Positions 34,706 to 55,776 of a stretch of 64,000 bases of DNA are shown here, piece after piece. Position 1 is the first letter of the stretch, and each line of letters starts with the position of its first letter. The notes beneath the pieces were generated by a model. That model was not told the origin of the DNA. It made no database searches and saw only the letters and a program-made list of their open reading frames with translations. Made by a program: the position numbers and the translations under genes. This DNA comes from an uncultured delta proteobacterium (lineage in GTDB: Bacteria > Desulfobacterota > Binatia > Binatales > Binataceae): positions 1,376,001 through 1,440,000 of the forward strand of contig CAVQEQ010000003.1 in NCBI GenBank assembly GCA_963711565.1, written 5' to 3'.

Positions 34706-36700
34706 CTAAGATGAGGTCCGGAGGCGGCGGGTGTCGCCTACTCGGGTCGTAACGCCGATGTGATCGAAGTGATCGAGCAGCGCGATTGCGAACTTGCGCG
34801 ATGCGCCCAGCAGGTCGCGGAATGTCGCAGCGGTGATTTCCGGGTGAGTCGCGAGATATTCGACCAGGCGATCCTTTGCGGTGTCGGCGGCGGCGCGGCT
34901 GAAATACAGATCGGTGGCTATTTTCATGACGCGACCCTCACGCTCCATCGCGAGCAGCACGGTTCTTAGATGAGGGAGCTGCCCGGAGGGAATTTTCAAA
35001 GCCTCGGCCAGCTGCTTGAGATCCGGGGGCTGGAATTCTGCGCGCGTCAGCGCGGCTTCGATTTTTCCACCGAGCGTTTCGGCGTCACCGCCTAGTTGCA
35101 CGCGATGACTTTTCAAGCGCAGCACACTTTCCTCGCGCACAATTTCTGACTCATGGCTGAGGCGATCGACGATCGGGCGGAACGCGCGCGCGCCGATTTC
35201 GTAGGGCAGCCGCGTGCGCAGCGCTTCCATCTCGAGGCCCGGCGATAGCGGCTCGGTTTTGTGGTGCACTGCGAGCTCGTCGAGCGCGAAGCGTTTGAGC
35301 GCATCCCGTCTGGTGCGCGTGGTGAAAGCTTCTTCGTCGCCGACTGACAGCTTAATGAAGCGCTGCGCTTCGCGAAGCGCTACTTCGGCCTCCGCGTCGG
35401 GGATGTTCATGAGGGTTGCGATGCTTGTCGTGCCGAGCGCGAAACTTTCCTGCAGATTGATCAATGCTTCGAGCGCATTGCCGCCGGACGAATCCTTGAG
35501 CGTGCGGAGATTGGCGCGATAGGACTCGATCGGCTTGCGGACGCGGCGCCCCAGCGGATTCAACACGATGCCGCCGCCGAGAGTGCGCGAATTGGTTTCG
35601 TCGCGGATGACGAAGCGGTCGCCCGCCAGCGCGACGACAGGGTCCTCGGTCACGAGTTGCACGAGACCAGCGGCTTTGGGCGCGATCGAATAGTGGAGCG
35701 GGCCGCCGTGCCCGCTCTCTTCAGCGGCGGGCACGGCGGCCCGCCCCACTACTCCTGCCTCCTCGAGCACGATCGCACGCGCGATGGTCTCGGCAGTACC
35801 GATGAACAGTCGCACACGGGTGTTGTTCTTGAGCGCGCGCTTGGCGGCGGGACGAATCTCGAGCCATGCGTCGAAGCGCGAGGTCGCGGCGTCGAGCCGC
35901 TCGTCGGCCAGCACGTCGCCGCGGGAGAGATCCAGCTTTTCGGCGCCGGTGAGATTGAGCGCGACGCGCTGGCATAGACCGGCGCTCTCGACCGGGTCCG
36001 AATGCACCTGGATCGAACGCACGCGCACCTCGCTTCCCGACGGGAGCACGCGGAGCTTGTCGCCGACGCGCACCTCGGCGCCCATCGCAGTGCCGGTCAC
36101 GACGATGCCGTGTCCTTTGATGACGAACGCGCGGTCGAGTGGCAGCCGGAAGATGCCGGTGGCGCGCCGCGCCTGGAAGCCGTCGAGCTGTCGGACGATC
36201 TCGGCGCGTAACTGGTCGAGCCCCATGCCGGTGATCGACGAGACCTCGATGACCGGCGCGCCGGCGAGCGTGGTGCCGTCTGCCAGCAGTTCGATTTCAT
36301 CGCGCACGTCGCGGATGCGCGCGGCGTCGGCAAGGTCAGCTTTGGTGATCACGAAGATGCCGCGGCGCGTGCCGAGCAGATGCAGGATGTCGAGATGCTC
36401 CTCGGTCTGCGGCATCACGCCGTCGTCGGCAGCGACGGTGAACAGCACGAGATCGATCCCGTGTGCGCCGGCGAGCATATTGCGGATGAAGCGCTCGTGG
36501 CCGGGGACGTCGACGACGCCGGCGCGAGTGCCGTCGGGCAGTGTGAAGTAGGCGAAGCCGAGGTCGATGGAAATCCCGCGCTCCTTTTCCTCCTTGAGGC
36601 GATCGGTGTCCTGTCCCGTGAGCGCCCTGATCAGCGCGGTCTTGCCGTGATCGATATGGCCGGCGGTGCCGATGATGGCGTGAGTGGTGGGAGAAGCCAT
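34706..36700 (-). CDS. selB: Selenocysteine-specific translation elongation factor
   Basis: Motifs '[12 protein letters not shown]', '[19 protein letters not shown]' and '[13 protein letters not shown]'; C-terminal winged-helix motif '[28 protein letters not shown]'. Confidence 0.96.
35690..35752. repeat. 63-bp REP/MITE-like palindrome inserted in frame within selB
   Basis: 25-bp arms with one mismatch and an 11-nt loop; GTAG end on the minus strand; encodes 21 extra aa. Confidence 0.8.
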
Positions 36701-36764
36701 CGTGGTGCGAATGTTATACTGCTCGGCGCGTGAGCCAAAGCGCGGATCGTGAAAGGGGAAGGGA

Positions 36765-37889
36765 GTGGGAAAGGCAACACGGGGACTTTGGATTTTCGGA
36801 CTAACTGCGATCGCGCTCGGTGGCTGCGGTGGCGCGCAGAATCGGCAGTCTATGCTTCCGACGGCGCAGATTGCGGCGCCGCTCAAGCTCTGTCCATCCG
36901 CGACCGCGCCGCCGAACGACCTTCTCGCCAACCCCGGCTTCATACAATTCGCGGTCTCGGTAACGGACTCGACGGGTAAGCCGGTCACCGGTCTGAAGCA
37001 ATCGGATTTCGCAGCTCACGAGGGCGGTCAAATTCTGCCGATTCAGTACTTTCATGAGGAGCCCGACGGCGCGCCAACGTCGATCGTCATCGTCATGGAC
37101 TTATCGGTATACATGGCCACCGGACTGGTCCCCCATCTGCGCAAAGTCGAAGCGGTTCAAAAAATGCTGCCTGGCGCGGTGAACAAGCTGAATGGGTGCG
37201 ACGAAATTGCGATATTGGTGTTTGGCGGCAACGAGTTTGCGGACGAGCATGCTAGCAGCCAAACGCTGAATCCTGGCGCTTACGAGGACCCTCATCCAAC
37301 ACCGATCAGGCTGATACAGCCCTTTACGACCGACCATCAACTGGCGCTGATGCGTCTGGAGTATCGGACAGCAACCGGGCTTGCGCCGCTATACGACGGG
37401 ATCCAACAAGGACTGAACGTACTGGAGTCGGCTCATTATCAGAATCGCGCGCTGATCGTTATTACCAATGGAGCGGACGACGCGAGCGAGGTCGAAAAGG
37501 AGGACCTGATCGCCAGCATCAACCAGAGCCGTGTGCCGCTTTACGCGATCGAACTTGGCAAACCCAACGCCCCCGCCTTCCGTAGTCCTCCTACCATGGT
37601 GATTCTCCCATATCCGATTCCCATCAAGATTGGAGACAGCCCACTCGTCGATACAGGAACGCTCGTGAAGCTGACGGCGCCGAACGGCGGCCAGTTGTTA
37701 ATCGTTCCGCACCCGACGTACGACCCCGCCGTGACGCTGAATGACGAGCTCAATTCGACGGTGACGGCTCTCAACCACGGGTACTCGATCGGAGTAGTCG
37801 CGCCCTCGGGAGCGGCGCGCCCCGAGATTGTCCTTGCGAACCGACCTCAGATCAGGGTGAGAGCGCACGCGGTTCCCCGCTTGCAATAG
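36765..37889 (+). CDS. VWA-domain lipoprotein
   Basis: Lipobox LGG-C; motifs 'VSVTD..GKPVTGL.Q.DF', degenerate MIDAS 'VMDLSVYM', 'LYDGI' and 'LIVITNGADD'. Confidence 0.8.
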   Translation: MGKATRGLWIFGLTAIALGGCGGAQNRQSMLPTAQIAAPLKLCPSATAPPNDLLANPGFIQFAVSVTDSTGKPVTGLKQSDFAAHEGGQILPIQYFHEEPDGAPTSIVIVMDLSVYMATGLVPHLRKVEAVQKMLPGAVNKLNGCDEIAILVFGGNEFADEHASSQTLNPGAYEDPHPTPIRLIQPFTTDHQLALMRLEYRTATGLAPLYDGIQQGLNVLESAHYQNRALIVITNGADDASEVEKEDLIASINQSRVPLYAIELGKPNAPAFRSPPTMVILPYPIPIKIGDSPLVDTGTLVKLTAPNGGQLLIVPHPTYDPAVTLNDELNSTVTALNHGYSIGVVAPSGAARPEIVLANRPQIRVRAHAVPRLQ

Positions 37890-39566: not shown

Positions 39567-41297
39567 TCAGTAGTCCAGCCTGTAGCGCTCCGTGGCGAGG
39601 TTGTACAAGGGCCGCCACATGAGGCGGTTCAACAGTAGCACTACCGCTATCATCGAAAGGAGGCTCAACAGGATCATCACGCCGTTGTTGCCCTTGCCGT
39701 AGGTGGCGGCGTCCAGCAGCGCGCCGATTCCGAGAACCTGGTGAGTCTGATCGTTGTAGACAAAATATTCGGACAGGATGAGCGCGTTCCATCCGCCGCC
39801 CCACGCGGTGATGCTGCCGGTGATCAGCGACGGCGCCACGGCCGGCAGGATCAACTTGCGCCATCGCGCGACGCGGGAGAGCCCGAACGCGCGCGCAGCT
39901 TCCTTCAAGTCCTCGGGCACCTGGTTGATTCCGGCGAGCAGGTTGAAGAGCAGGTACCATTGCATGCCGGTGAGGATGAGCACGATCGACGCGACGTTCA
40001 TCCCGCCGGTGAACTCGATGAAGGCGGCAACGATGATCGGGAACAGCGCCGTCGCCGGCATCGAGCCGACGATCTCGGCGATGGGCGACAGGATTCGGTT
40101 AAAGCGCGGATTCTCGCTGGCGGCCAGCGCGCACGGCACCGTCCACGCGAGCGAGATCGCGTAAGCGATCGTCATGCGAATAGTCGAGAGGAGGATAGCT
40201 TCGGGAATCTGCTTAGCGTCGTCGGGCCACGGCTGCGATAGCGTTCTGACCAGAGCCACGAAGCCCCGGGCCAACGCCCACAGGGTGAAGAACACTATCG
40301 TGCCGATAATCAGCGACCGCACGATATTGCCGACGCGCTTGCTTTGTTCGGGAGTCAGCTGCGGACCGCGCGGTAACGCGTCGATCGCGCGGCGCATAAA
40401 CCTGAAAGGAGGGACCAAGATCATCCGCAACCCGCGCGTGACCGCCGGGCCGACGCCGGAGAGCGCGTCGAACATCCCGAGCGATTGCACGGCGCCGGAT
40501 GACGCCGCGAATTCGTATTTGAACTTTTCGGCCCACGTGGACAGCGGCTGCCATACGATCATGTCCATCAGCACGATGATCGCGAGCAGGGTGAGAAGGC
40601 CAGCGGCGAGATCGAAATTGCGTCCTTTCTCGGAGGCTTGCCACAGGAAACTGCCCAGCCCCGGCAGCCGGTAGGTGGCGGGACCGGCCGTGATGATCTC
40701 GCACGCGATGAGGAAGTACCAGCCCGCGACCCACGACAGGATCGAGTTGTACACGAGCTTCGGCACGCTGGCGGGCAACAGCAATCGCTTGAACTTCAGC
40801 CATCCGCGGCCGCCGAACGTCTCGATGCACTCCCTGGAGTCGTCGGGAATGGTTTTGACGGCTTCGTAAACGCCGAGCGCCATGTTCCACGCCTGGCTGG
40901 TGAAGATGAGAAAGACGGCCGCCATCTCGACGCCGAGCCGGCTGCCATGCGTCAGCGCGACGAAGAAAAAGACCGCGGCGGGAAAAAACCCGACCACCGG
41001 CACCGACTGCGCGATGTCGATGGCGGGAATCAGGATGCGCTCGTAGAGGCCGCCGCGCGCCGCCGCCATGCCGTAGATGATCGAAAAAACCAGCGCGATG
41101 ATGTACGCCGCAAGCATCCGGTAAAATGAGCAGAACGCGTAGTATGGAAGATGGCGGATCGAGACGGGGACGTTGTGCGGAATGAAATGCTGAGCGTGGC
41201 TGCGATACGCGAAGAACAGCGCGATGATCGCGGCGAGCGCGAGAAACGACAGCGTGCCATTGATCAAACGGCGGGTATTTATTTCGATCCTGGGCAT
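39567..41297 (-). CDS. NitT/TauT-family ABC permease with two fused TM domains
   Basis: Motifs 'DIAQSVPVVGF', 'FTSQAWNM', 'GMQWYLLFN' and 'TAWGGGWNA..SE'; start MPRIEIN. Confidence 0.88.
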   Translation of the reverse strand: MPRIEINTRRLINGTLSFLALAAIIALFFAYRSHAQHFIPHNVPVSIRHLPYYAFCSFYRMLAAYIIALVFSIIYGMAAARGGLYERILIPAIDIAQSVPVVGFFPAAVFFFVALTHGSRLGVEMAAVFLIFTSQAWNMALGVYEAVKTIPDDSRECIETFGGRGWLKFKRLLLPASVPKLVYNSILSWVAGWYFLIACEIITAGPATYRLPGLGSFLWQASEKGRNFDLAAGLLTLLAIIVLMDMIVWQPLSTWAEKFKYEFAASSGAVQSLGMFDALSGVGPAVTRGLRMILVPPFRFMRRAIDALPRGPQLTPEQSKRVGNIVRSLIIGTIVFFTLWALARGFVALVRTLSQPWPDDAKQIPEAILLSTIRMTIAYAISLAWTVPCALAASENPRFNRILSPIAEIVGSMPATALFPIIVAAFIEFTGGMNVASIVLILTGMQWYLLFNLLAGINQVPEDLKEAARAFGLSRVARWRKLILPAVAPSLITGSITAWGGGWNALILSEYFVYNDQTHQVLGIGALLDAATYGKGNNGVMILLSLLSMIAVVLLLNRLMWRPLYNLATERYRLDY

Positions 41298-41442
41298 TGT
41301 CGCGTGACCCGAACCTTCCAGCATAGCCGCGCAAGCGGTTGGCTCAAGGGCCAAGCTCATTTCAGATACATTAATTTTTCCGCGCGCGGCGTTGACAACG
41401 TGCGGTCCCGCGATTACCGACAGCGCGAGAGCGAAGAAGAGA

Positions 41443-43110
41443 ATGGCGAGCGCGGAAAGAACTACAGATAACGAGTGGCGACTCGACGACGAATCGAGCG
41501 AGCGCCGCGAGGACCAGCCGCCACTCGCGCCGACGCCCGCCGAGAACGCCGCCAAGCTGAGCCACGAACGGCTCACCCGACCTATTTACGTCGTCACGGC
41601 GGAGCATTTTGCGTGGTACCTGGTTGTAGCGTACGCGCTCATCACGCGCGCGGTGGCTCTGGGAGCACGTCCTCTGGATCCGGCGCAGGCCACAGACGCG
41701 CTCACGGCGTTGCTCATCGCGCAGCATGGCCGCCTCGCTTTCGCGTTGTCGGATGCGTCGTGGGTGACGATCGTTCAGGGCTGGATCTTTGCGGCGATGG
41801 GCGCGACTGATGCCGCCTCGCGCATTGTCGTGACGCTATGCGGCCTGCTGCTCATCGCGACCGGCTTTGCGCTGCGTCCGGTCCTCGGGCGCGCGGGAGC
41901 GCTGGCCTTTGCCGCATTGATCGCGATTTCGCCGAGCACGACTTATTTTTCGCGCGGTGGCTCGACCGTGATCGCGTCGCTAACGTTGATGATGATCGCG
42001 ATCACAATCGCGGAGAGCATGCGCCGGCGTCCTACCGTGCTCCGCGCCGTCGGGCTGGGCCTTGCGATCGCGCTGTGGCTCACGGCGGATCCGATCGGCT
42101 ACGTAACCGGCGCCGCGATGATCGTGTCGCTGATTCTGGTCGGTGCGGCCGACGCTGTGCGCCTGGACCATCGGCGTTTGCGCTTGCGCGTATGGTGGGA
42201 CCGTCGCCGCGCGCTGGTCATCGTTTGCGGGATCGTGGCGATCGGCTTGTGGTTCATCCTGACGACGGCTTTTTTTCACCGGCCTCTCCTGGCGTCCGTC
42301 GAATACTGCCTGCATAGCGCATTCGCCCCGCCATCGATCGCCTTCTACCACGCAATTCGGGGATTGATTCCGATTTTGGTTTTTTACGAATTCATCGTCG
42401 TGGCTCTGGCAATCGTCGGCGCCATCGCGATCGTCTCGCGACGTATCGGCGATCGCTTTGCGGCCTGGTCAGTGGTGTGGAGAATCGTGAGCGTCGCGAC
42501 AATTGCGGCGGTGAGCGCGAATCGAACTGACGCGGTCGTCGCGATCGTTCTGCCGCTGGCGCTGGTCGGCGCTTACGCGGTGGATTGGATGCATCGGTTG
42601 GAGCAATGGAACTCGATTCGTTATGCGATTGCTGCGGCGGTCGCACTCACCATCTACGTTCAGCTCACCGTCAATTTCGTTCATCCGGCGCCGGACACGA
42701 GCGAAGCGTCGTGGCGCCGGCACGCGCTGTTGTTCTGGTCGGATCCGACCACTTCGATCCGGACGGTGGAGGAATGCGAGCGTGCGCGGAATGCGGTATC
42801 GACGGCCGGAGCGAGCGCGATGATTCCCGACGATGCGCCGCAGGTGCAATGGTATCTGCGCGATTTCACACAGACAGATTCGCCGGCGGACGCGAACATC
42901 GTAGTGACACTCGGCAAGACGGAAAGCGGCGCGGTCGCGGGCAACCCGGACGTCCCGCAGTTTGGATTCGAAGAATGGTGGACGCCCGATTTCCACAAGC
43001 TGACGATAGCCGACGCCGTCACATATTTTTTCACCCAACGCGCGTGGAGCGATGTCGAGATTCGGAATCTCGAAATCGAAGTGACGAAATCCGGCAACCC
43101 TAACCCCTGA
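41443..43110 (+). CDS. GT-C/PMT-like (Agl23/TIGR03663-like) membrane protein
   Basis: About 11 TM segments; 'AISPS..YFSR' and C-terminal 'QWYLRDF'. Confidence 0.6.
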   Translation: MASAERTTDNEWRLDDESSERREDQPPLAPTPAENAAKLSHERLTRPIYVVTAEHFAWYLVVAYALITRAVALGARPLDPAQATDALTALLIAQHGRLAFALSDASWVTIVQGWIFAAMGATDAASRIVVTLCGLLLIATGFALRPVLGRAGALAFAALIAISPSTTYFSRGGSTVIASLTLMMIAITIAESMRRRPTVLRAVGLGLAIALWLTADPIGYVTGAAMIVSLILVGAADAVRLDHRRLRLRVWWDRRRALVIVCGIVAIGLWFILTTAFFHRPLLASVEYCLHSAFAPPSIAFYHAIRGLIPILVFYEFIVVALAIVGAIAIVSRRIGDRFAAWSVVWRIVSVATIAAVSANRTDAVVAIVLPLALVGAYAVDWMHRLEQWNSIRYAIAAAVALTIYVQLTVNFVHPAPDTSEASWRRHALLFWSDPTTSIRTVEECERARNAVSTAGASAMIPDDAPQVQWYLRDFTQTDSPADANIVVTLGKTESGAVAGNPDVPQFGFEEWWTPDFHKLTIADAVTYFFTQRAWSDVEIRNLEIEVTKSGNPNP

Positions 43111-43238
43111 CCCATGCGAAGGGCTAGGTTGCCTGCCGAGGGTGGCTTTGCGATAAACTGCACAGACCGCGCATCGCGCCTACGTGTTGTCCCGCGCCCG
43201 CGCGTACTCTGACCCTGTTTCCATTCTAAGGAGCATCG

Positions 43239-43928
43239 ATGGACGCTGCCCTGAAATTCCTGGAACCCTACCAACTGCATCCTGTCGTAGATCATTTCTC
43301 GATGGCGCTGCTGATTGTCGCCGTGCTGATCGATCTCGTCGCCAGCGCGGCACCGAATCGTACCTGGCTTCGCTACACCGCCTTGTTGCTGATGATCCTC
43401 GGTGCGATCGCTGCAGGAGCTTCGTATTTCACGGGCGATATGGAAGCCGACCGCATCTGGGACGCGCTGGGGCAACCGGCCAAAGATGTGCTCAGCAGGC
43501 ACGCGAAATTGGGCGAGTATCTCGCGATTATCTTCGGTGTACTCGCAGTGTGGCGAATTCTGATCCAGGCGTTCGGCTTCATGGCAGGATCGCGCGGGAT
43601 CTATCTCATCTTCGCTCTCGTGGCGATCGTGCTGCTCGGTTACCAGGGGCATCTCGGCGGCATACTCGTGTTCGATTACGGCGCCGGCACCGCGCTGATG
43701 GCGGCTGCTCCCGTTCCGTCGGAGGCCGCAAGCCCTCAAGCGGCGTCCACCGCGGCGGGACCGATCCCGACAGTGTCCGTGCCGACTCCCCAGCCCACGG
43801 CAAGCGCGCCGCCGCCTGTTCCCGCAGCGTCAGCTTCAACATCGATGGGGTCGCCAAAGCCCGTCAGCGCGCCGACGCCAGTCCCGAGTGTTCAGCCCTC
43901 GGCCGCGCCGAGTGGAGCGAGCATGTAA
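43239..43928 (+). CDS. DUF2231-like membrane protein with a Pro/Ala tail
   Basis: Motifs 'LHPVVDHF', 'H...G' and 'GHLGG.LVF.YG.G'; four TM segments. Confidence 0.75.
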   Translation: MDAALKFLEPYQLHPVVDHFSMALLIVAVLIDLVASAAPNRTWLRYTALLLMILGAIAAGASYFTGDMEADRIWDALGQPAKDVLSRHAKLGEYLAIIFGVLAVWRILIQAFGFMAGSRGIYLIFALVAIVLLGYQGHLGGILVFDYGAGTALMAAAPVPSEAASPQAASTAAGPIPTVSVPTPQPTASAPPPVPAASASTSMGSPKPVSAPTPVPSVQPSAAPSGASM

Positions 43929-43995
43929 TCGCGGACCGGTTGAGGTATCCGCGTATCCCTCGCGGCTCAGTCTGAAGAGAGAGCAAGGAGTAGTT

Positions 43996-45162
43996 ATGAC
44001 CCAGCGTCTCGGTTTTGGCGTGTTCCTCGCGCCGCATCATCCTATCGGTGAGCATCCCACGCTCCAGCTTCAGCGCGATCTCGAACTGGCCAAGTGGCTC
44101 GACGAGCTGCAATACGACGAGTTCTGGGTGGGTGAGCATCACTCGGCGGGATGGGAAACGATTGCGTCGCCGGAAATGTTCCTGGTCGCCGCGGCGGAGC
44201 GCACCAAGCGAATCAGGCTCGGCACGGGCGTCGTGTCGATTCCGTACCATCACCCGTTCAACGTCGCCCAGCGCATCGTTATGCTCGATCATCTGAGCCA
44301 CGGCCGCGCGATGCTCGGGGTCGGCCCGGGCGCGCTGCCGTCGGACGCCGTGATGCTCGGGATCGATCCGATGACGCAGCGCGACCGAATGGACGAGGGC
44401 CTCGGCGTCATCCTGCGCCTGCTAAATACAGACGAGCCGTTCAGTTACACCGGCTCGTGGTTCGAGCTGCACAACGCCGCGCTGCAGATTCGTCCGCTGC
44501 AAGAAAAAATTCCGATCGCGGTCGCTTCGACGATTTCGCCGTCGGGGATGAAGACCGCGGGCAAATACGGCGCGGGCGTGCTGTCGGTCGCCTCATACTC
44601 CGAAGAAGGGCTGATGGCGCTGCCGACGCAGTGGAATTTCGGCGAGACGTTGGCGAAGGAATACGGCAACACGATCGATCGCGCGAACTGGCGAATCGTG
44701 ATGCCGTTTCATCTCGCGGAATCCAAAGAACAGGCGATGCGCGAAGTCGCGGCTGGACTCCAGAGATGGCAGAACGAGTACGTCGTCGGCATTCTCGGCA
44801 CGCCGAATCGCCCGACGTTTCCCGACGGCTACGAGGCCGCCAAGCGAATGAGCGAATATGGCGGCGCGATCTTCGGCACGCCGGAGGACGCGCTCGAACG
44901 CATCGCGCGCCTGCAGAAACTCTCGGGCGGCTTCGGCACAATCCTGAGCTTCGCCCATGACTGGGCGACGCGCCCGCAAATGATGCGCAGCTACGAACTC
45001 CTCGCGCGCTACGTGATGCCGCGATGCCAGGGGCTGATCAAGCCGATCGAAGCATCGGCCGCTCGCGTCAGCGCCAACAAAGCGGAGCTGATGGAAAAAG
45101 CGGGCGGCGCAATCCTGAAGGCAATCCGCGACTACAACGCGGTACACCCGAGACAGAAATAA
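43996..45162 (+). CDS. LLM-class flavin-dependent monooxygenase (limonene 1,2-monooxygenase-like)
   Basis: Motifs 'FGVFLAP.H', 'WVGEHHS.GWE.IASPE', 'IRLGTGVVS.PYHHP' and 'GVGPGALPSDA'. Confidence 0.88.
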   Translation: MTQRLGFGVFLAPHHPIGEHPTLQLQRDLELAKWLDELQYDEFWVGEHHSAGWETIASPEMFLVAAAERTKRIRLGTGVVSIPYHHPFNVAQRIVMLDHLSHGRAMLGVGPGALPSDAVMLGIDPMTQRDRMDEGLGVILRLLNTDEPFSYTGSWFELHNAALQIRPLQEKIPIAVASTISPSGMKTAGKYGAGVLSVASYSEEGLMALPTQWNFGETLAKEYGNTIDRANWRIVMPFHLAESKEQAMREVAAGLQRWQNEYVVGILGTPNRPTFPDGYEAAKRMSEYGGAIFGTPEDALERIARLQKLSGGFGTILSFAHDWATRPQMMRSYELLARYVMPRCQGLIKPIEASAARVSANKAELMEKAGGAILKAIRDYNAVHPRQK

Positions 45163-45182
45163 AAGGCCGGCCTGGCTTTGTC

Positions 45183-46184
45183 TTAGCGCGACGGCGCCGC
45201 GGAATGCTGGAGCACGGGATCGCCCGACATCAACTGCTGCGCCTTGCGCAGCGCCGCTTCAGTCTCGCGCAACAAGTCGGCAAACACTTCGGCGGCGGGT
45301 TTGATCGCGTGAATCAGTCCCGCGCCCTGCCCGGTCGGCATGAACGTACGATTGGGATCTACGTCGTGGCCGCCGCGTCCGGTGTAGTTCATGACTCCGT
45401 TGCGGGACGAGACCTGCGCCTGCATCGGGAATGCCTGAATCTTCGACGGGTCCTTCTCCCACTCGAGCGCATACTCGGTGCGGATTACGCGACAGGTCTT
45501 GCCGGTGTAGGCGCGCGTGCGCAGGGTCGAATCCTCGTGCGCCTTTACGATCGCCTCGCGATAGCCTTGCGCCGCCTGCGCCTCGGGCGTTGCGATAAAG
45601 CGCGTGCCGATCACGACGCCCTGCGCGCCGACCGTCAGCGCCGCCGCTATCTGCCGTCCATCGGCAATTCCGCCCGCGGCGAGCACCGGCAACTTCACCG
45701 CGTCGATCATCTGCGGCACCAACGACAGCATTCCGATTTCGCCGGTGTGACCGCCCGCCTCGGTGCCTTGCGCGACGACCACGTCGGCGCCCGCATCCTG
45801 CGACTTGACGCCGTGATGCACCTTGCCGCACATCACGACGATCTTCATTCCGTTGTCGTGCATCACCTTGACGAATTCCTGCGGCACCGAGAGCCCGGCG
45901 ACGAAGACCTTGACCTTTTCTTCGATCATCACGGGCACGTGCGGGCGCATCATGTCGGGAATCGGCGCGAGCAGATCGACGGCGAACGGCTTGTCAGTCA
46001 GTTCGCGAGTCTTGCGGATTTCCGCGCGCAGATCGTCGGGGCTCAGCGACGCGGCGCCGATAACGCCAAGGCCGCCGGCGTTGGAAACCGCGGCGACCAG
46101 CTTGTGCATCGCGACGCCACCCATCCCGGCGAGCAGGATCGGATACTTGATTCCAAAGTAATCGCAAATCGGCGTATGCAGCAT
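45183..46184 (-). CDS. Nitronate monooxygenase / FabK-like flavoprotein
   Basis: Motifs 'YPILLAGMGG', 'AVSNAGGLG', 'QGTEAGGHTG', 'AAGGIADG' and 'GTRF'. Confidence 0.9.
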   Translation of the reverse strand: MLHTPICDYFGIKYPILLAGMGGVAMHKLVAAVSNAGGLGVIGAASLSPDDLRAEIRKTRELTDKPFAVDLLAPIPDMMRPHVPVMIEEKVKVFVAGLSVPQEFVKVMHDNGMKIVVMCGKVHHGVKSQDAGADVVVAQGTEAGGHTGEIGMLSLVPQMIDAVKLPVLAAGGIADGRQIAAALTVGAQGVVIGTRFIATPEAQAAQGYREAIVKAHEDSTLRTRAYTGKTCRVIRTEYALEWEKDPSKIQAFPMQAQVSSRNGVMNYTGRGGHDVDPNRTFMPTGQGAGLIHAIKPAAEVFADLLRETEAALRKAQQLMSGDPVLQHSAAPSR

Positions 46185-46317
46185 CGAGACGTTCTCCAAT
46201 AGTGAGCCGTCTGTGCGACTGGCTCCTCATGACTTCTTAGTTGGCGGGTGCGGAGCAATCAAGCGTGTCCGCGGCGCGATGCTGACCTGTCCCCTGAAAC
46301 TCGCCAGCGGTAGAGAC

Positions 46318-47415
46318 CTAAATATCCTCGGGGCCCGGGTAGTACTTCCCATCGCCGAGCGAATCGACCGCGGCCCAGAACTCAGGACCGCCCGGCTTCA
46401 TCGGATCCTCGAGCGCCCAGGCCTGCCGCTTGTAGTTCCAGCTCTCCGGCCTCAGCCGCTTGGCTTCCTCGAAATATTTCTGCGCCGCCTCCGCGTGTCC
46501 ATGCTCGAACAGAAACTCACCGAGCCTGAAATTCGCCGCCGCGCTGACCTGTGTGTCGTCCGGCGTATGCATTCGCCTGAGCACTTCCGCCTCGCCGAGC
46601 GCGTAACGGCTTTCCGATCCCTTCGCGACCCAATCGCGAAGCGCGTCGAGGTAAGCCTTACGCTTTGCCTGCAGCTCGTTCATCGCGTCGATCGGAATCG
46701 AGAAGTTGGTGCGATTCATCTTGCGGAATGCGTCAGTGACGCCGGCGGGTTCGCTCGGCCGTACGATCTTGCCGCGCTCATCGATCCAGACGGCGGTCGG
46801 CACGTTGACCATGTCGTAAAGCTCGGCGACGAGATGCCGCCGATCGATCAGGCACGGATAGGTGGGCTTGGCAGCCTTGATCCACGGCTCGGTCGCCGCA
46901 TTGCCGCCACTGTCGAATGCGATCGCGATCGGCACGAATCCTTTTGGCCCGAGTTCTTCGTAGAGGGCCTGCCAGACTGGCAGGTCAAAGCGGCATCCTC
47001 ACCACGACGCCCATGAAACGACGAAAACTTTCTTGCCGCGATAGTCGGACAGCGAATGCATCTTGCCGTCGAGATCGGGCAGGCTGAAATCCGGCGCGTC
47101 GAGCGAGGTCAGCATCCGCTTTCTCTCGGCCGCGGCCTCGCCGAAGCACCATGCGCCAAACTCCGCGTCCGTCACGACAGGTTGTCCGAGCAGACTAGCC
47201 AGCGCCGCGAGATTGTAACGCCCGCCCGCAACGAACTCGCTGATCCGCGCGTCAGGCACCGGCACGCACACGTCGCCCCTGCAGAATCCCTGCGGCTTGA
47301 ACTCCCACCCGCTGACCCGCTTCAGATCGTCGCCGTCAAACCACAACCCGCCGCCGGTCGATTCGGCATCGACGCCGCTCGTAACGCGCTCGCCGTATAT
47401 AATGTCGACTGCCAT
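46318..47415 (-). CDS. Predicted selenoprotein: ResA/TlpA-like redoxin with WASW-U-GC motif and C-terminal TPR-like helices (365 aa, Sec139)
   Basis: ORFs 46999-47415 and 46318-46935 are in one frame, separated by a single TGA at the redoxin active site (APDFSLPDLDGK...VFVVSWASW*GCRFDLPVWQALYEEL). A hairpin follows the TGA, and selB is in the window. Confidence 0.85.
46968..46984 (-). promoter_or_regulatory. Putative bacterial SECIS element
   Basis: mRNA hairpin CCUGCCA-GUC-UGGCAGG begins 14 nt after the UGA and has GU in the apical loop. Confidence 0.7.
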
Positions 47416-47485
47416 CGCTATTCGCCTCGCGCAGAGATTTCACCACAAACCCACGACCTTCACCAAGCGGCTCTTTACCCTTCCC

Positions 47486-50400
47486 TTATATCCACAATAT
47501 CGCGCCGCTCGCGGGACGCCCCGTGCTCTCTCGGACCGCTCGCACATAGAACCTGATCTGCGCGCGATATTCGTCGAGTCGCGGCGCGACTTCTACATCG
47601 GTCTTGAAATCGACCACCGTCCAGACCACGCCATCGACGGTATTCTCCGCGAACGCGAGATCCGCGATTCCTTCGACCGCGGTGCCGTCTTCGAGCCGGA
47701 TCATCAGCGGACACTCACGCATCACGGTTTGCGCAGCCGTCGCGCGAAGCATCAGCGGAGATTTGAGCGCAGCTTTCACCGCGGTCACGGCGGCTGCGAT
47801 CTCGTCGTCGGGCGCGCCGATCATCTTGGCCGCGCTCGCCGCGATCTTGCCGAGCTCGCGCGCGTCCGCGTCGAACGGCGCTCGCAGCATCGTCAGATGC
47901 ACGAGCGTGCCGAAGCGTTTGCCATGCGGGCGGCCGCGATCGCGACGCGTCTCTTCAATCGCGATAGTCTCGGCGGATGCCGGTCCGTCCGCCGGCGCGG
48001 CGAGCGCGAGCTCGGTTGCAGTCGCGACGTTGATACGCGGAGTCGTTCCCGCCGCGAGCATCGCCGTCCGGCTCGCGCTCCACGCTGCGTGCATTTTTTC
48101 GCCGCGGTCCGACACGAGTTTGTTCTCGTCGGCTTGCAGCAGCTTGTCCTGCCGCAGCCCCATCTTCTCCTCGACGTTGAGAATCAGCAGCCGCGGATCC
48201 CACCAGACCACTTGATGCGCCCCCTGTTGCACGCGATGTAGTCCCGGCGCCACCGATTTCACTTTGCCCGGCGCTTTTGGTGGACGCGTCAGCACGCTAT
48301 CGTCGCCGAATTCGGGGCATCCGGCAGGATGCGCCGACAACGGGGCGCGCCGTTCCGTATTCGCCGGATAGACGACGGGATTCAGCCGCGCGAGCCAGCC
48401 GTCGCTCTCCTCGTCGCCAACCGCCGGCACCACGAGCAGATCGCGCGCGCGGGTGGCAGCCACGTAGAGCAGGCGAATCGATTCTTCAACGTCGCGGTCA
48501 TGCTCTTTCGCCGCATGCTCCTGCAGTTCGCGCGGCGCGCATCCGGCAAGTTCCATCGCGGCCAGCTTCGACGACGGCTCGATATACCGCGACGCGTCGG
48601 CGCGAGTCTCGTTGCAGGTGATATCGGCGAGAATCACGACGGGAAACTCGAGACCCTTCGCGCGATGCACCGTCATTATCCGCACGCCCTCGGTCCCTTC
48701 CTCGACGATCGGCGTCTCGCTCGCCTCGTCGCGTTCAGCGCGCGCTTCGAGCTCATCGACGAACGCCCGAAACGACGTCGTGCCGCCGCGCGCTTCGTAA
48801 CGCCGCGCCTGGTCCATGATTCGCATGATATTCGCGAGCGCCTGTTCGCCGGTCGGCCAGATCGCGAACCCGGCATGCGCACGCGTCGTCGCCAGCAGCA
48901 TCGCGATCGTCTCCGCGATCGGCCGTCGATTCCGTCCGCGATGCAGATTCTTGATCACGTCGAGCGCGCCCTTCACTTCCTTCAGGCTGTCGGGAAGATC
49001 GTCGGGCAGCTTGCGAAACGGATGCAGGCTGCCGATGGTCATTCGGAATTCGAGCAGCGCCGCATCCGACAGCGCGAACACGGGACCGCGCAGCGCTGCG
49101 AACACCATCAACTCGTCGTCGGGCCGCTCGATCGCTCCCAGCAGATTGCGGATCGCGATCACCTCTTCGCGCTCGTTGAACGATCCGCCCTTGACCAGCA
49201 CGTGCGGCAGATGCCGCGCCTCGAGCGCGCGCAGATACGGCCGCGTCACGTCGCGCCCGAACGAATTCATGCGGCGAAACAGGATGCAGATATGGCGCGG
49301 GCGAATCGGCACCCGCACATCGGGCGCCTCGCGATCGGTCACCGTCCATCCGCTCTCATGCACCAGCCATCGCGCGTACGCGGCGATCGCCTCCGGAATC
49401 GACTCGTCGATTTTCCAGTTCACGACGCGGCCGAAATCGCCGTACGGCTCCGGCACCGGCAGCACGACGATCGACGGCTGGGTGGCGGGCTCGGCGCGAT
49501 ACCGCATCAAAGGCGCGTAGGCCGGCTGCGTGCCCGACTCCTCGCTCATCAACGGCGCGAACGCAGCGTTGACCATCGTTTGAATCGCGGGCGTCGCGCG
49601 AAAGCTGACTGTCAGATGCTCGAGTTGCGCACCATGCATCAGCAGCAGTTGTTTGACGCCCTGATAGAGCGAAACGTCGGCGCGGCGAAAACGGTAAATC
49701 GATTGTTTCGGATCGCCGACGATAAATAATTTCCCGGCGATCGGCTTGACCTTCAGCCAGTTGGTCTCGGCGGGATCGGCCGACGACAACAGCAGAATGA
49801 TTTCCGCCTGTAGCGGGTCGGTATCCTGGAATTCATCGACGAAAATATACGTGAAGCGATTCTGCAGCTCGGCGCGTACCGCGGCGTTGTCGCGAACGAG
49901 ATTGCGCGCGACGAGCAGCAAGTCGAGGAAATCGAGGCGTCCAGCGCGCCGCTTCAGGTCTTCGTAGATACCGACGATCGGCCACAATTCGTCGCGCAGC
50001 AGAGGCGCGAGATTCGCGCCCGCGTCGTCGCGAAACTTTTCCAACCGCGCGCGCAGCTCGGCGCGACGCCGAAACACTTCTTCGCGCTCGACCGCGCCGA
50101 AGCCGCCGCCGTATCCCTTCCAATCCCAGCGGCGCCCCGTGCAGAGAGCGATCAGCACAGATTCGAGCGCGTCGTAATCGCGCCCGCGCACCGCCTCGAG
50201 CCGGGTCGCCTCCGCCACGGGCCGCGCGATCGCGTCGAGGCCCTTCGCCAGCCAGTCGTCGTCCTCGCCAAGTTCGGAAAGTTTGCCGAGCGCTTCGACC
50301 TCCGCGATTATCGCGTCGATCTCGGCGTCGCGCGCGAAGGGCGAATGTACCCACGGCGAATCGAAGTCGCGCCAGTTCATCAGCTCGAGCGCCGCGCGGC

Positions 50401-50947
50401 GCGCGATCGCACGCGGCCCCGTTCGCGCCGACAGATCGCGCCGGCGCAGCAGCCGCCGCATCCCCTCGCCCGGATTGTCCAGGATTTTTTCAAACCATCG
50501 CTCGAAGGCGGCGTCGAACATCTCACCCGCAACGTCCTCGGGCGCGACTTCGAACATCGGATCGACCTGCGCTTCCACCGGCCGCTCGCGCAGCAGGTCG
50601 GCGCAGAACGAATGAATCGTGCCGATGCGCGCTTCTTCCAGTTGCTTGAGCGCGAGGTCGAAGCGCGCGCGCGCTTCGCTCGCAGGCTCAGTGCCTTGCC
50701 GCGCGCGTTCGATTTCCGCGCGCAGCCGCAGTTTCAGCTCGCCGGCAGCCTTTTCGGTGAACGTCACCGCGACGATCCGCGCCAGTTCGCCCCGACCCGA
50801 CCCGATAACTGATACGATTCGATTCACCAGCGCCGTGGTCTTGCCGGTGCCGGCCGCCGCCTCGATCACGAGCGTGACATCGAGGTCGTCGCGAATACGA
50901 TCGCGCACCGCCTGATCGGAGATGATTGCCGGGTTCGCGAGCGTCAT
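47486..50947 (-). CDS. addA: UvrD-like helicase/nuclease, AddA-type subunit
   Basis: Motifs 'AAAGTGKT', 'VTFTEKAA.EL', 'VDEFQDT', 'VGDPKQSIYRFR', 'MTVHRAKGLEF' and 'YVAATRA'; C-terminal 'GIAD...VDFKT' nuclease. Confidence 0.85.
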   Translation of the reverse strand: MTLANPAIISDQAVRDRIRDDLDVTLVIEAAAGTGKTTALVNRIVSVIGSGRGELARIVAVTFTEKAAGELKLRLRAEIERARQGTEPASEARARFDLALKQLEEARIGTIHSFCADLLRERPVEAQVDPMFEVAPEDVAGEMFDAAFERWFEKILDNPGEGMRRLLRRRDLSARTGPRAIARRAALELMNWRDFDSPWVHSPFARDAEIDAIIAEVEALGKLSELGEDDDWLAKGLDAIARPVAEATRLEAVRGRDYDALESVLIALCTGRRWDWKGYGGGFGAVEREEVFRRRAELRARLEKFRDDAGANLAPLLRDELWPIVGIYEDLKRRAGRLDFLDLLLVARNLVRDNAAVRAELQNRFTYIFVDEFQDTDPLQAEIILLLSSADPAETNWLKVKPIAGKLFIVGDPKQSIYRFRRADVSLYQGVKQLLLMHGAQLEHLTVSFRATPAIQTMVNAAFAPLMSEESGTQPAYAPLMRYRAEPATQPSIVVLPVPEPYGDFGRVVNWKIDESIPEAIAAYARWLVHESGWTVTDREAPDVRVPIRPRHICILFRRMNSFGRDVTRPYLRALEARHLPHVLVKGGSFNEREEVIAIRNLLGAIERPDDELMVFAALRGPVFALSDAALLEFRMTIGSLHPFRKLPDDLPDSLKEVKGALDVIKNLHRGRNRRPIAETIAMLLATTRAHAGFAIWPTGEQALANIMRIMDQARRYEARGGTTSFRAFVDELEARAERDEASETPIVEEGTEGVRIMTVHRAKGLEFPVVILADITCNETRADASRYIEPSSKLAAMELAGCAPRELQEHAAKEHDRDVEESIRLLYVAATRARDLLVVPAVGDEESDGWLARLNPVVYPANTERRAPLSAHPAGCPEFGDDSVLTRPPKAPGKVKSVAPGLHRVQQGAHQVVWWDPRLLILNVEEKMGLRQDKLLQADENKLVSDRGEKMHAAWSASRTAMLAAGTTPRINVATATELALAAPADGPASAETIAIEETRRDRGRPHGKRFGTLVHLTMLRAPFDADARELGKIAASAAKMIGAPDDEIAAAVTAVKAALKSPLMLRATAAQTVMRECPLMIRLEDGTAVEGIADLAFAENTVDGVVWTVVDFKTDVEVAPRLDEYRAQIRFYVRAVRESTGRPASGAILWI

Positions 50948-53900
50948 GGCATCTCGCGCAGCCGCGTCAGCGACTTGAGCCGCACTTTCGGTTTGATTTT
51001 CGAGCGCCGCTCCTCGTACGGGCCGCACACGCGCTTGTAGTCGCACCAGTCGCATTCGCGATCGTCCGGCGCGGCGGGCAGAAAGCCGGCTTCGAGCGAC
51101 TCCTTGACGATCTCGACGAAATCGCGCGACGCGCGGCGGGCCTCGTCGTTGATCTCGACGACACGCTCCTCGTAGCCGCCCGCGGCGGTGCAGTAGTAGA
51201 GCCGTCCGGCGTAAATTTTCTCGCGCAGAACTTGTTCGGCGGCGAGCGCGTACAGCACCGGCTGCAGCGTCTTGCCGCCGCCGATGATGAAGTTCTTCTC
51301 GGCGCGCACTTTCCCGGTCTTGTGATCGGTCACGCGAATTCGCCCGGCCGCATCGCGCTCGAGCAAATCGATCGACCCGCGCAAACTCAAGCCGCCTTCG
51401 ATCGCGACCGGGTCCGCCGAGCTGTGCGGGTCCGCCTGCGCGCGATCGCGCAGCCCAAAGCCGAGCTCGAACCACTCGGGACGCCAATGTTCCGGGTCGT
51501 CGGCCGCCCGGCGCATCCACTCGCGCAGGTCGGCGCGGATACCTTCGATGCCGTCGAGCCACACGCGCTCGATCGCCGGCGCGAGATCCTCATGCCATCG
51601 CGCCGCAACTTCGTCGAGCTTCTCGTCGAGCAACCCCGACGCGTCATCCAGGTCGTCAGGCGTCACCGGCAGCACGTCGAGCTCCCGCAGCGCCGACAGG
51701 ATCTCGTACTGCACCTCGGCGAACAGGCCGCCGCGCGTGAGCGGATCGAGCGTGTCAATCGCCTCGGGCTCCTCGCGCGGTTCAAGCCGATGAACCGCTT
51801 GCAGAAAAAAACGATACGGGCACGCCGCGAAATTTTGCAGCGCGGTCGGCGAGTACGAACGCGCGCTCAACTGATGCTTGCCCAGCGCCGCCAGCGCGGC
51901 CGGATCAGGATCGACAAGGCCGTCGGCCGAGGTCCATCGCCGCAGCCACCGGCGCGCCCGCGCGCGCAACGCCCGCCCGAGATGAACGTTCGCGCCCAGC
52001 AAATAGTTCGCCGCGCCTGTGGTGGTATCCGGATCGGCGTCCACCAGTTTGTCGAGCACCGCCAGATCGAATTCCGCGTCGTCGATCGCGTCGGCAGGAT
52101 TCGCCGGCGCCGGCCATGAAAGGCGCGTCACCGGCTGCGATGCGGCGCGCGTCGCCAGCTCGTCGAAGCCGGGCAGGCGGCCTTCCGCAGCGCGCAGAAT
52201 TTCGAGCGCGTAGAAGGACGGCACGCGCGGCCGGCCCTGGTCGAGATCGACTCGCGGATATGAGAACATCACGCGCTCGCGCGCCGCGCCAGCCGCGATT
52301 CTCAATGCGAGTCGCTCCGCACCGACGCGTTGCTCGTTGCGAGCGAGATACGGACTCAGCCGCGCGCGCGACGCATCGGAAAGAATTGGATCCTCGGTCA
52401 GCTTGCGCGGAAACATCCGCTCGGCAAGGCCGGGGACGATGACAACGTCGAACTCCATGCAGCGAGCGCGATTCGGCGGCGCGACGAACACCGCGCCGTA
52501 ACGACGCACGCGCCGCGGAGTTTCGAGACGCCCGAGCCGATCGTTCAGCACGATGCGCACCTCGTCGAGTCCAACCGGACCGACCGGCGCCATCGGCTCG
52601 AGCTCGGCGAGCGCGGCGAGCACCGGCTCGCGATCGCGAATCGCGAGATCGATCAGCGCGCGAAGAAACTTGAGCCAGTCGCCCCAAGTCGCATCGCGCG
52701 GCGCCGCTTCGAGCATCGTGAGGATCGGCATCGCCACTTCGCCGAGATGCGCGAGGTCGAGAATTCGCCGCTCAAGGCCGGCCGCGTGCGCGTCGTCGTC
52801 GGCAAGTTCCTTGCGCCGCGCCGCGAGATCGTTACCGAGACCAGCCAGCCGCTTGCGCCATCGTTCGGCGCTGCCGATCACGGCCGCCTCGACGAGCAGC
52901 CGTTCCCATCGCCACGGCGCGCGCGCGGTTCCGTCGATGACCGGAACGGGATCTGAGGCGAAATTGGAGAGATCAGCATTGCTTGCACTTTCGTCCGCGG
53001 CAACGTCACTCTCGACTTCAAGATCCGACTCAAGCGGCGCCGGCGCGAGTTCCGCGTCCGGACTGACGGTCGGCTCGTCGTCACGCGCGCGATCGGGGTC
53101 GGGCACTTGAGCGAGCGAGAGATATTCGGCAAAGCGCCGCGCCGAAAGATTTTCCGCGGCGCAGCAAAGCAGCGCGAGCATCGCGCGACCGCCCGGCTCG
53201 GGGCGCCGCGCGCCGCGCGCAAAGTAAGCCGGGATCTCGGCGCGGGCGAGCACCTCCTGCAGGTACGGCGCGTAGCGAATCGGATCGTGCAGCAGCACGG
53301 CGATTCGATCGAACGGCACGCCGCGGCGCGCCTCGGCGGCGATTCGGCGCGCGATCTCCACGCACTCGTGCATCTCGCCGGGCGCCGAAATCACCGTCAC
53401 GGATTCGTCAACGTCGCGCTCGGGCGGGGCTGTATTCGCGAACAAATGGGTCTGGAGACGCTCGAGCGACGGCGCGATGCTTTCGTTGACGGTCGGCGAT
53501 AGCGGAGTTGCACGCACGCCGAGAGCGTCTTCGAGGATCGATTGGACGGGCGAGTCGCCGGCGGGAATCGTCGCGAGAATCGACGGCGAACATGCGGCGA
53601 GGGCCGCGATAAAGTCGCGATCGAGCGCGCTGTCCACGGATGGATCGAGCAACAAAATCGGCAGACCGACGAAGCGCGGCGGATCGGGCGCGAGTACCGC
53701 GCGCGTCGCGACTTTAAGCATCCCGGCACGATCGATCAGCTTCGCTTCGGCCAGCTCGGCGTCGAACTGCGCGAGTGTCGCGGCAATCGCGTCGCCCGCG
53801 CCGCCCAGCGCGCGCAGGTCGTCGGCGGCGATGTTGTTCCATCGAAGCTCGATCAGCGTGCGCGCCAGTGCGCGCGAGAAGCCGGGAAGATTCAGCACCG

Positions 53901-54234
53901 GCGCAAAGTGCTCAAGCGCTCCCGACGGGGCGAGGCGGAAGACCGCGCGCGCGGCGACCGCTTCGGCGGCGAGTCCGTCGGCGGGCGCGAGGCCGGTATC
54001 GGCGAGTTCCTCGGCGGCGAGCAATCCGATCAGGCGGTTGAGAGTCAGGCGATGCACCCCGAGCATCGCGCCGCGCGATATTGCAAACGCGCGCACGAGG
54101 TCGTCGGCAGCTTCCTTGACCGACGCGATCACCAGGACTTCGGTGGCGGATGGCTGCGAGTCGAGCCACGCGCGGGCGGCGGCGATGCGCTTATCGGCGC
54201 GTTCGGAGATTATGATTTCATGAGAGGCTGGCAT
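50944..54234 (-). CDS. addB: AddB-type subunit: degenerate helicase plus PD-(D/E)XK nuclease with Fe-S cysteines
   Basis: Motifs 'SPTALQNFAACPYRFF', 'GSID...DHKTG', 'LQ..LY' and 'CDWCDYKRVC'; overlaps the addA start (ATGA). Confidence 0.82.
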   Translation of the reverse strand: MPASHEIIISERADKRIAAARAWLDSQPSATEVLVIASVKEAADDLVRAFAISRGAMLGVHRLTLNRLIGLLAAEELADTGLAPADGLAAEAVAARAVFRLAPSGALEHFAPVLNLPGFSRALARTLIELRWNNIAADDLRALGGAGDAIAATLAQFDAELAEAKLIDRAGMLKVATRAVLAPDPPRFVGLPILLLDPSVDSALDRDFIAALAACSPSILATIPAGDSPVQSILEDALGVRATPLSPTVNESIAPSLERLQTHLFANTAPPERDVDESVTVISAPGEMHECVEIARRIAAEARRGVPFDRIAVLLHDPIRYAPYLQEVLARAEIPAYFARGARRPEPGGRAMLALLCCAAENLSARRFAEYLSLAQVPDPDRARDDEPTVSPDAELAPAPLESDLEVESDVAADESASNADLSNFASDPVPVIDGTARAPWRWERLLVEAAVIGSAERWRKRLAGLGNDLAARRKELADDDAHAAGLERRILDLAHLGEVAMPILTMLEAAPRDATWGDWLKFLRALIDLAIRDREPVLAALAELEPMAPVGPVGLDEVRIVLNDRLGRLETPRRVRRYGAVFVAPPNRARCMEFDVVIVPGLAERMFPRKLTEDPILSDASRARLSPYLARNEQRVGAERLALRIAAGAARERVMFSYPRVDLDQGRPRVPSFYALEILRAAEGRLPGFDELATRAASQPVTRLSWPAPANPADAIDDAEFDLAVLDKLVDADPDTTTGAANYLLGANVHLGRALRARARRWLRRWTSADGLVDPDPAALAALGKHQLSARSYSPTALQNFAACPYRFFLQAVHRLEPREEPEAIDTLDPLTRGGLFAEVQYEILSALRELDVLPVTPDDLDDASGLLDEKLDEVAARWHEDLAPAIERVWLDGIEGIRADLREWMRRAADDPEHWRPEWFELGFGLRDRAQADPHSSADPVAIEGGLSLRGSIDLLERDAAGRIRVTDHKTGKVRAEKNFIIGGGKTLQPVLYALAAEQVLREKIYAGRLYYCTAAGGYEERVVEINDEARRASRDFVEIVKESLEAGFLPAAPDDRECDWCDYKRVCGPYEERRSKIKPKVRLKSLTRLREMP

Positions 54235-54366
54235 CCGGCGCGGCGCGAAGCTTGATACGCGACATATCTATCGTGTGCTCCGGGTATCGGAGCTTCAAGA
54301 GCCGCGCCGGGTTTGTTTCCACAGCGTGGACAACGGTTGTCATCGGTCGAGTTGTAGCAGATGCAG

Positions 54367-54411
54367 AATCCGCCGTGGGTCTCCCTAGGCACGGTTGACC
54401 CCTACACCCGG
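54367..54411. repeat. Structured intergenic element, copy B (similar to 25715-25772)
   Basis: AATCCGCCGTGGGTCTCCCTAGGCACGGTTGACCCCTACACCCGG aligns by eye to copy A. Confidence 0.55.
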
Positions 54412-54577
54412 TCGTTCTGCCATTCAGAGCGAAGCGAAGAATCCCGGTTTTTTCGCGTCGTGCCAGCCGCTGCGGCCTCTGATACCTCGCCCGTTATTTT
54501 GCGGGAGAGGCGGCCGGCGGGTGCAAGCCGCCGGTAGGTGAGGGTGCTGCGGTGCAAGATCCGAGCGCGCAACGTCG

Positions 54578-54952
54578 CTAATGCGAGCCGCCTTTTCCCC
54601 GCATCGAGATTTCGTCCCATAGAAGTAGCTGGTAGCCGTCGGGATCGCGGAGTTCGGCGCCGTAGCCCCAGAAATATTTTCCTGGAGGATTGGTGAACGC
54701 GACGCCCTTCGATTGGAGTTCTTTGTACTTCGAATCTACGTCGTCAACTTGCAGGGTGAGAGAGCATTTGGCGCCGGAGAGTTGGGCGGGTTGCTCGTAG
54801 AGGAAGATCGTGAAGCCGGCGTCGTCCTGGATTGCGGAGGTTTTGCGATCGGGGACTTCGAATTCAACTTTGAAGCCGAAGTTGCGCACGTACCAATCGC
54901 GCGAGGTTTGGTAGTTCGTGACCGGGAGATTCATGTGATCAAATTTGACCAT
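54578..54952 (-). CDS. VOC/glyoxalase family protein
   Basis: Motifs 'DHMNLPV', 'WY..NFGF', 'VDDVD' and 'WG..AELRDPDG'. Confidence 0.9.
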   Translation of the reverse strand: MVKFDHMNLPVTNYQTSRDWYVRNFGFKVEFEVPDRKTSAIQDDAGFTIFLYEQPAQLSGAKCSLTLQVDDVDSKYKELQSKGVAFTNPPGKYFWGYGAELRDPDGYQLLLWDEISMRGKGGSH

Positions 54953-54974
54953 GTCGCCGCTCCTTGTTCCGTCT

Positions 54975-55739: not shown

Positions 55740-55776
55740 CGAATTACCTCCGGCGCTAAATTGCGATCGCCGAAAA

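Follow-up and report, generated by a model that had tools for sequence, protein, structure and literature searches.

Thiol-disulfide oxidoreductases of the ResA and TlpA type have an N-terminal membrane anchor or signal and an extracytoplasmic location rather than a cytoplasmic one. Bacilliredoxins, which work without selenocysteine (Sec), are smaller single-domain proteins. Two of these, BrxA and BrxB (YphP/YqiW), combine a thioredoxin fold with a CGC motif and reduce S-bacillithiolated proteins, according to the available part of PMC5444506. A selenoprotein family named "Prx-like (UGC-containing)" was published in 2008, with counts of 46 for the Sec forms and 855 for the Cys homologues, and was reported to be commoner in non-marine samples, as stated in the accessible portion of PMC2398784; that portion contained no experimental function, codon-level contrast of the Sec insertion sequence (SECIS), or selA co-occurrence. 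The family also is listed in PMC9312934, the accessible sections of which call the functions of most such predicted selenoproteins unclear, and it is included in a 2026 selenoprotein catalogue (PMC13188914). Our literature search, from which subscription papers were mostly missing, revealed no experimental study of the family, and the term "WAxxUGC" did not occur in the papers searched.

The gene analyzed here is a further member of this family, in print since 2008 and curated at NCBI as NF041054 ("ResA-like WAxxUGC motif-containing protein", an equivalog). Compared with ResA, TlpA, and DsbE (structures 2f9s, 1st9, 3gl3, and 1jfu), its product shares the fold over residues ∼100 to 265, the tryptophan before the nucleophile, the acidic residue three positions past the second cysteine, and the cis-Pro-type loop. 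It differs from ResA and TlpA in having a UxC rather than a CxxC motif, no membrane anchor, an additional N-terminal Cx4C domain, and a TPR-like C terminus. The bacilliredoxins likewise possess a three-residue X-G-C active site in a thioredoxin fold. The features of the locus are collected in the table.

Features of the selenoprotein gene and of selB in the 64,000-nucleotide stretch of DNA that was analyzed (the window)
Feature	Position	Strand	Remarks
Whole gene, 365 aa, predicted Sec at codon 139	46318..47415	-	NCBIfam NF041054 WAxxUGC_long
In-frame TGA, predicted selenocysteine U139	46999..47001	-	C141 follows at 46995-46993
Predicted SECIS hairpin	46968..46984	-	Stem 46984-46979 / 46973-46968, loop 46978-46974
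N-terminal beta-rich domain, ∼residues 1-100	47116..47415	-	AlphaFold2; no family assigned
C45-x4-C50 codons	47283-47281 and 47268-47266	-	Adjacent strands E43-46, E49-51
Thioredoxin-fold domain, TlpA/ResA type, ∼residues 101-222	46750..47115	-	AhpC-TSA E 5e-19
NVP cis-Pro-type loop	46806-46795	-	In thioredoxin-fold domain
C-terminal helical region, residues 223-365	46321..46749	-	Helix 242-268, then TPR-like pairs
selB, Sec-specific elongation factor	34706..36988	-	TIGR00475 366 bits, cut-off 242; SelB winged-helix domains

Reading frame, family assignment, and domain organization

Read on the minus strand, positions 47415 to 46318 comprise 365 codons with a single in-frame TGA at codon 139, here translated as U, and the joined translation around this site reads W135-A-S-W-U-G-C141 followed by R-F-D. 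A sequence-only reading of the window had proposed that a 138-aa ORF (47415-46999) and a 205-aa ORF (46935-46318) are pieces of one read-through gene. Retranslation confirmed that the first ORF ends at the TGA, and the second ORF lies in the same frame. The joined protein scored 355.1 bits against NF041054 (cut-off 300), with a match spanning profile positions 9 to 350 of 354; the separate halves (96.5 and 197.1 bits) failed this cut-off. When the profile was run on the genome, the gene gave 348.5 bits and was the sole copy above the cut-off. The protein also contains the WAxx(U/C)GC motif within a ResA-like fold, as members of the family do. The "WAxxUGC" ResA-like name given in the sequence-only reading proved to be correct. 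In motif and length the protein resembles the curated WAxxUGC_long family and we found no difference, this copy being split by gene callers. Supplement sequences in the part of PMC2398784 that was available share the N-terminal cysteine pair, the SW-U-GC motif, the NVP loop, and the C-terminal helical region. The closest named relatives, at 84 to 90% identity, include several Candidatus Binatus genomes, and the host probably belongs with them.

An alignment of 70 rows, with U replaced by C, was the input for an AlphaFold2 model (pLDDT of 95.6, pTM of 0.91). The model begins with an N-terminal domain rich in beta strands, continues with a thioredoxin fold, and ends with a long helix followed by TPR-like helices. 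The best matches to the middle of the protein are ResA, DsbE, and TlpA, with fold match Z scores of 15.3 for 3gl3 and 14.3 for 2f9s; ResA 2f9s superposes on the middle domain with an rmsd of 1.4 over 115 columns. The family-specific cut-offs for ResA, StoA, and TlpA were not reached (75.8 of 170, 47.2 of 210, and 44.6 of 230 bits, respectively). In the ResA-type alignment, U139 falls on the first catalytic Cys, as had been read from the sequence, the second Cys is preceded by a gap of a single residue, and D144 aligns with the Glu of the CxxCxxE motif in ResA-type proteins. The C45-x4-C50 pair, the N204-V-P-T207 loop, and the TPR-like stretch noted in the same reading also are present in the joined protein. 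Invariant positions among the 70 rows are C45, C50, residue 139, G140, C141, N204, V205, P323, W326, and R330, with D144 and P206 nearly so; C45 and C50 also are invariant in a 51-row alignment. The conserved P323, W326, and R330 reside in the TPR-like helix pairs of the C-terminal region, where Pfam TPR_2 matched residues 292 to 324 with an E of 0.002; a further TPR_2 match had an E of 1.5e-4, and both were below the cut-off. In a hydropathy scan for a hydrophobic anchor or signal, the highest 19-residue value was 1.01, and 0 of 70 rows exceeded 1.6. The absence of an anchor or signal from every row makes a cytoplasmic location likely for the protein, in contrast to ResA and TlpA.

Several searches were directed at the N-terminal domain. 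Pfam yielded nothing of note in 51 members, a sequence search of the PDB gave no match below an E of 1.4, and the two halves of the domain do not align with each other. A possible resemblance of residues 1 to 100 to the N-terminal (stalk) domain of copper amine oxidases, PF07833, was considered; none of the 51 members matched this profile (Pfam, E of 1), and it was carried by 0 of 61 genomes of the phylum. The single-sequence model of the domain was poor (pLDDT of 55.7) and had no Foldseek match at an E of 0.001, with a best Z of 2.4; with such a model, the search says nothing for a new fold or for a known one. A profile of the domain run against 1.84 billion proteins provided 1,204 matches. 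Among the best 150 of these, 36 end at the WxxW/UGA site, five read through, 93 stop before the start of the thioredoxin domain (fragments or stand-alone forms), and eight end otherwise; eight long multi-repeat matches were set aside. Fusions to other domains were sought among 806 longer candidates, and the one weak match obtained was not a fusion of the WAxxUGC family; long open frames that were seen consisted only of upstream GC-rich frame.

Decoding of the in-frame TGA

Codon 139 was compared across homologous loci. It is TGA in all 80 genome loci compared, the best 80 among 371 matches, which share 49 to 90% identity. The metagenome loci were gathered with a Cys homologue as the query, and 78 of the 80 cover the codon, with 56 TGA, 20 TGC, and two TGT. 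Neither TAA nor TAG occurred at this position in 158 loci (genome plus metagenome). Full-length homologues in the protein databases have Cys at the Sec site in nine of 11 records and Trp in two. The two W-W-G-C records (P0021 and P0035) possibly are gene calls with TGA taken as Trp. The alternation of Cys and TGA at position 139, with conservation on both flanks, thus came out as the sequence-only reading had predicted, and the Cys-form homologues are each encoded by one uninterrupted ORF.

The form of the codon was further compared with the presence of selA in 121 genomes of the class, 44 of which have family matches; these genomes are related and the counts are hence not independent. All 37 genomes with the TGA form contain a selA match (one partial and below the cut-off), as do 90 of the 121 overall, whereas none of the seven genomes with the Cys form (TGC) does. 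These seven derive from three genera and so represent few independent events; the location of the TGA at the motif was confirmed for 10 of the TGA-bearing class matches. A tree of 62 rows constructed by a quick method requires eight Sec/Cys changes, at least seven of which are forced by well-supported branches.

The complete set of Sec genes sought was present in the genome: selA (570 bits), selD (363 bits), and tRNA-Sec (72.4 bits), as the earlier reading had expected, along with selB in the window. That reading also had drawn on the nearness of selB. The distance is indeed short, ∼9.3 kb, but the proximity is not conserved, with selB found within 6 kb of the gene in 0 of 80 genome loci; this lack of conservation indicates no operon link, and we regard selB as supporting machinery that is not co-transcribed.

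Downstream of the TGA, a hairpin is predicted in which nucleotides 18 to 23 (numbering the U of UGA as 1) pair with 29 to 34 and the loop contains G25-U26. The published rule for a bacterial SECIS requires a loop of 3 to 9 nucleotides with G in its opening two positions, located 16 to 37 nucleotides past the UGA (PMC13188914), and an energy of at most -7.5 kcal/mol (section 5 of the same source). The loop of the present gene is ∼21 nucleotides after the UGA, and the folding energy is -11.5 kcal/mol for nucleotides 15 to 37, values consistent with this rule. The 102 nucleotides after the TGA fold no better than shuffled sequences (z of -0.40), and a loose form of the rule fits 11,370 of the 135,037 TGA triplets in the genome (8.4%). 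Given these two results, the hairpin counts as evidence only through its conservation.

We compared 91 distinct Sec contexts (from 136 loci) with 17 distinct Cys contexts (from 22 loci). Pairs 19-33, 20-32, 21-31, 22-30, and 23-29 are kept in 91 of 91 Sec contexts, versus 14, 17, 10, 14, and 16, respectively, of the 17 Cys contexts, and the mean folding energy is -9.6 in the former versus -5.6 in the latter. Positions 24 and 27 covary in the Sec genes (C-G in 68, G-C in six, A-U in two, and A-C in 15); the present gene has the A-C mismatch, a form thus seen in 15 of the 91. Codon usage within the hairpin follows the same division, with a G-ending codon for Leu145 in 136 of 136 Sec loci versus 12 of 22 with Cys (control Leu122, 71 of 132 Sec loci) and Gln149 encoded by CAG in 135 of 136 Sec loci versus 13 of 20 Cys loci (94 of 124 at the control Gln331). 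The pairing is partly forced by the encoded amino acids, and a sliding synonymous test found codons 243 to 245 to be conserved as strongly as the hairpin. As judged from these alignments, the predicted GU-loop hairpin is conserved in Sec genes and decays in Cys genes.

Sec read-through in cells is usually partial, and a truncated 138-aa product may also arise. A genuine stop, with two separate proteins or a pseudogene as its outcome, nevertheless is highly improbable. The databases do mostly hold halves, 109 of the best 120 matches being C-terminal pieces shorter than 240 aa, as anticipated from the way in which ordinary gene callers would split the gene; these pieces begin at many different codons, however, as is typical of gene-calling artefacts. 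A real stop would break the thioredoxin fold at its active site, and it is at odds with the single ORF of the Cys forms, the way in which TGA tracks selA, and the lack of TAA or TAG among the 158 loci.

An even smaller chance, which we consider negligible, attaches to the possibility that sequencing or assembly turned a TGC, TGT, or TGG into the TGA. The assembly has a frameshift, if not more, at another place in the window, near 23720 in groEL, but each of 80 further genomes at species level has TGA here (the best 80 among the 371 matches), and a contig from another run spans 46138-47700 without gaps and with 45 differences, none of the 40 that were listed lying at the TGA. That other species have the same TGA makes an assembly error very unlikely despite the groEL frameshift. 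The groEL gene itself (23351-25041, minus strand) is divided by this frameshift into 441-aa and 118-aa ORFs, reflecting either an assembly indel or a pseudogene. The two reading frames at the present locus very likely form one gene with the TGA encoding selenocysteine, and Sec almost certainly would be inserted by SelB at the hairpin, a strong inference from the comparative data.

Genomic setting and other candidate selenoproteins

Upstream of the gene, 57 of 80 genome loci carry an addA-like gene; these 57 all belong to the matches with at least 63% identity. Among the 80 metagenome loci, many of them on short contigs, the count is 0. In most close relatives, a conserved 301-aa ORF with no Pfam match is directly downstream (46 loci; e.g., L024:7115-8017, plus strand), followed by a PTPS/QueD-like gene (42 loci). 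The downstream gene in the window is instead nitronate monooxygenase-like, a neighbor that recurs in one of the 80 genome loci. Beyond the addA synteny in close relatives, no conserved partner gene was found that would indicate a substrate. A search of positions 40000-56000 against Rfam gave no match, and no credible promoter or terminator was found. The sequence TTTGTG-TGAAAT, located ∼25 to 35 nucleotides before the start (47420-47445, minus strand), is kept in the closest relatives while its flanks vary and is a possible promoter or operator. Contigs from RNA libraries of relatives cross the TGA site in at least three of four runs, which is not proof of transcription. Elsewhere in the window, a 478-aa ORF (29044-30480, plus strand) starts with a YfhL-like 4Fe-4S dicluster (85 bits versus a cut-off of 86) followed by ∼380 residues with no family match.

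A rough, non-exhaustive scan of the genome for further TGA-containing selenoprotein genes identified a second redox gene with an AhpC/TSA fold, the motif H-W-U-P-F-C, and a GU-loop hairpin (G000:C3 542623, plus strand; L191:986-1570). A PrdB/GrdB-like gene with the motif P-A-U-P-V-C and a GU-loop hairpin (G000:C2 146948, minus strand; L192:569-1423) scored 173 bits against TIGR04483, below the cut-off of 300, and likely encodes a third selenoprotein. The presence of these two additional TGA genes is in keeping with Sec decoding at codon 139. In-frame TGA codons also were seen in ordinary-looking enzyme genes at G000:C4 1357202 (plus strand) and G000:C1 96054 (minus strand); these lack a strong hairpin and probably are errors or nonsense changes. 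The genes for formate dehydrogenase alpha (G000:C4 1386455-1388482) and selD (G000:C3 1271890-1272804) have no in-frame stop, so the Sec machinery seems to serve small redox proteins.

Proposed function and its alternatives

We moderately favor a role for the Sec-decoded 365-aa protein as a cytoplasmic protein-disulfide oxidoreductase. In the predicted pathway, SelB would bind the GU-loop hairpin ∼21 nucleotides after the UGA and deliver Sec-tRNA. Positioned where helix 140-158 begins, the U139 selenolate would attack a disulfide or mixed disulfide of a partner protein, and C141, aided by the conserved acid D144, would resolve the adduct to form a strained Se-S ring. The N-terminal C45/C50 pair most likely would re-reduce the U-G-C center as a built-in relay, and the TPR-like C terminus most likely would dock the partner protein. 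Because the fold is ResA/TlpA-like, we find it reasonably probable that the protein is a disulfide reductase or isomerase of the cytoplasm in which U139 serves as nucleophile and C141 as resolving thiol; the assignments of C45/C50 as an internal relay and of the TPR-like end to partner binding are more weakly suggested. For comparison, the accessible part of PMC3173608 gives potentials of -130 to -200 mV for CxC centers, more oxidizing than typical CxxC reductases and near those of isomerases.

The U-G-C motif is the Sec counterpart of the CGC motif in the thioredoxin-fold proteins BrxA and BrxB, which raises the alternative of a Sec-decoded monothiol de-thiolase. U139 would then strip a low-molecular-weight thiol from S-thiolated proteins and be recycled by the same thiol, leaving C45/C50 a structural or metal-binding role. 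We judge this alternative unlikely: the protein resembles ResA/TlpA in both fold and sequence, bacilliredoxin families are absent from the matches (the UPF0403 (BrxA/B) profile was not hit in Pfam at an E of 0.01 or in NCBIfam at an E of 0.001), and the invariance of C141, together with the near-invariance of D144, would be expected of a resolving cysteine.

The family was filed as "Prx-like" in 2008, as seen in the available portion of PMC2398784, and a selenoperoxidase acting on hydroperoxides, with its selenenic acid resolved by C141 or C45/C50, is a further alternative. AhpC-TSA is the best Pfam match, GSHPx matches weakly (E of 2.4e-5, below the cut-off), and peroxiredoxins are among the fold matches with Z of 10 to 12. 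The thiol-disulfide oxidoreductases nevertheless outrank peroxiredoxins by both sequence and fold. Moreover, the peroxidatic motif of peroxiredoxins, PxxxT/SxxC(U) (PMC13188914), is absent, with V132 at -7 and A136 at -3 from U139. A peroxidase function consequently appears quite improbable to us.

A more elaborate version of the protein-disulfide oxidoreductase proposal, which we put forward tentatively and consider doubtful, is a self-contained Se-S relay in which the Cx4C domain would recharge the strained U-G-C center and the TPR-like arm would target a single cytoplasmic protein. Were this relay to operate, the family would act as a dedicated switch of redox state in soil bacteria of wide distribution (Binatota, Rokubacteria, and Chloroflexota), in which selenium would be exchanged for sulfur repeatedly upon loss of selA.

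The present gene adds one member to the family described in 2008. Most database records hold the gene in pieces, so that it is overlooked in an abundant lineage of soil bacteria. With the naturally occurring Cys forms, a UxC/CxC thioredoxin center would be easy to test.
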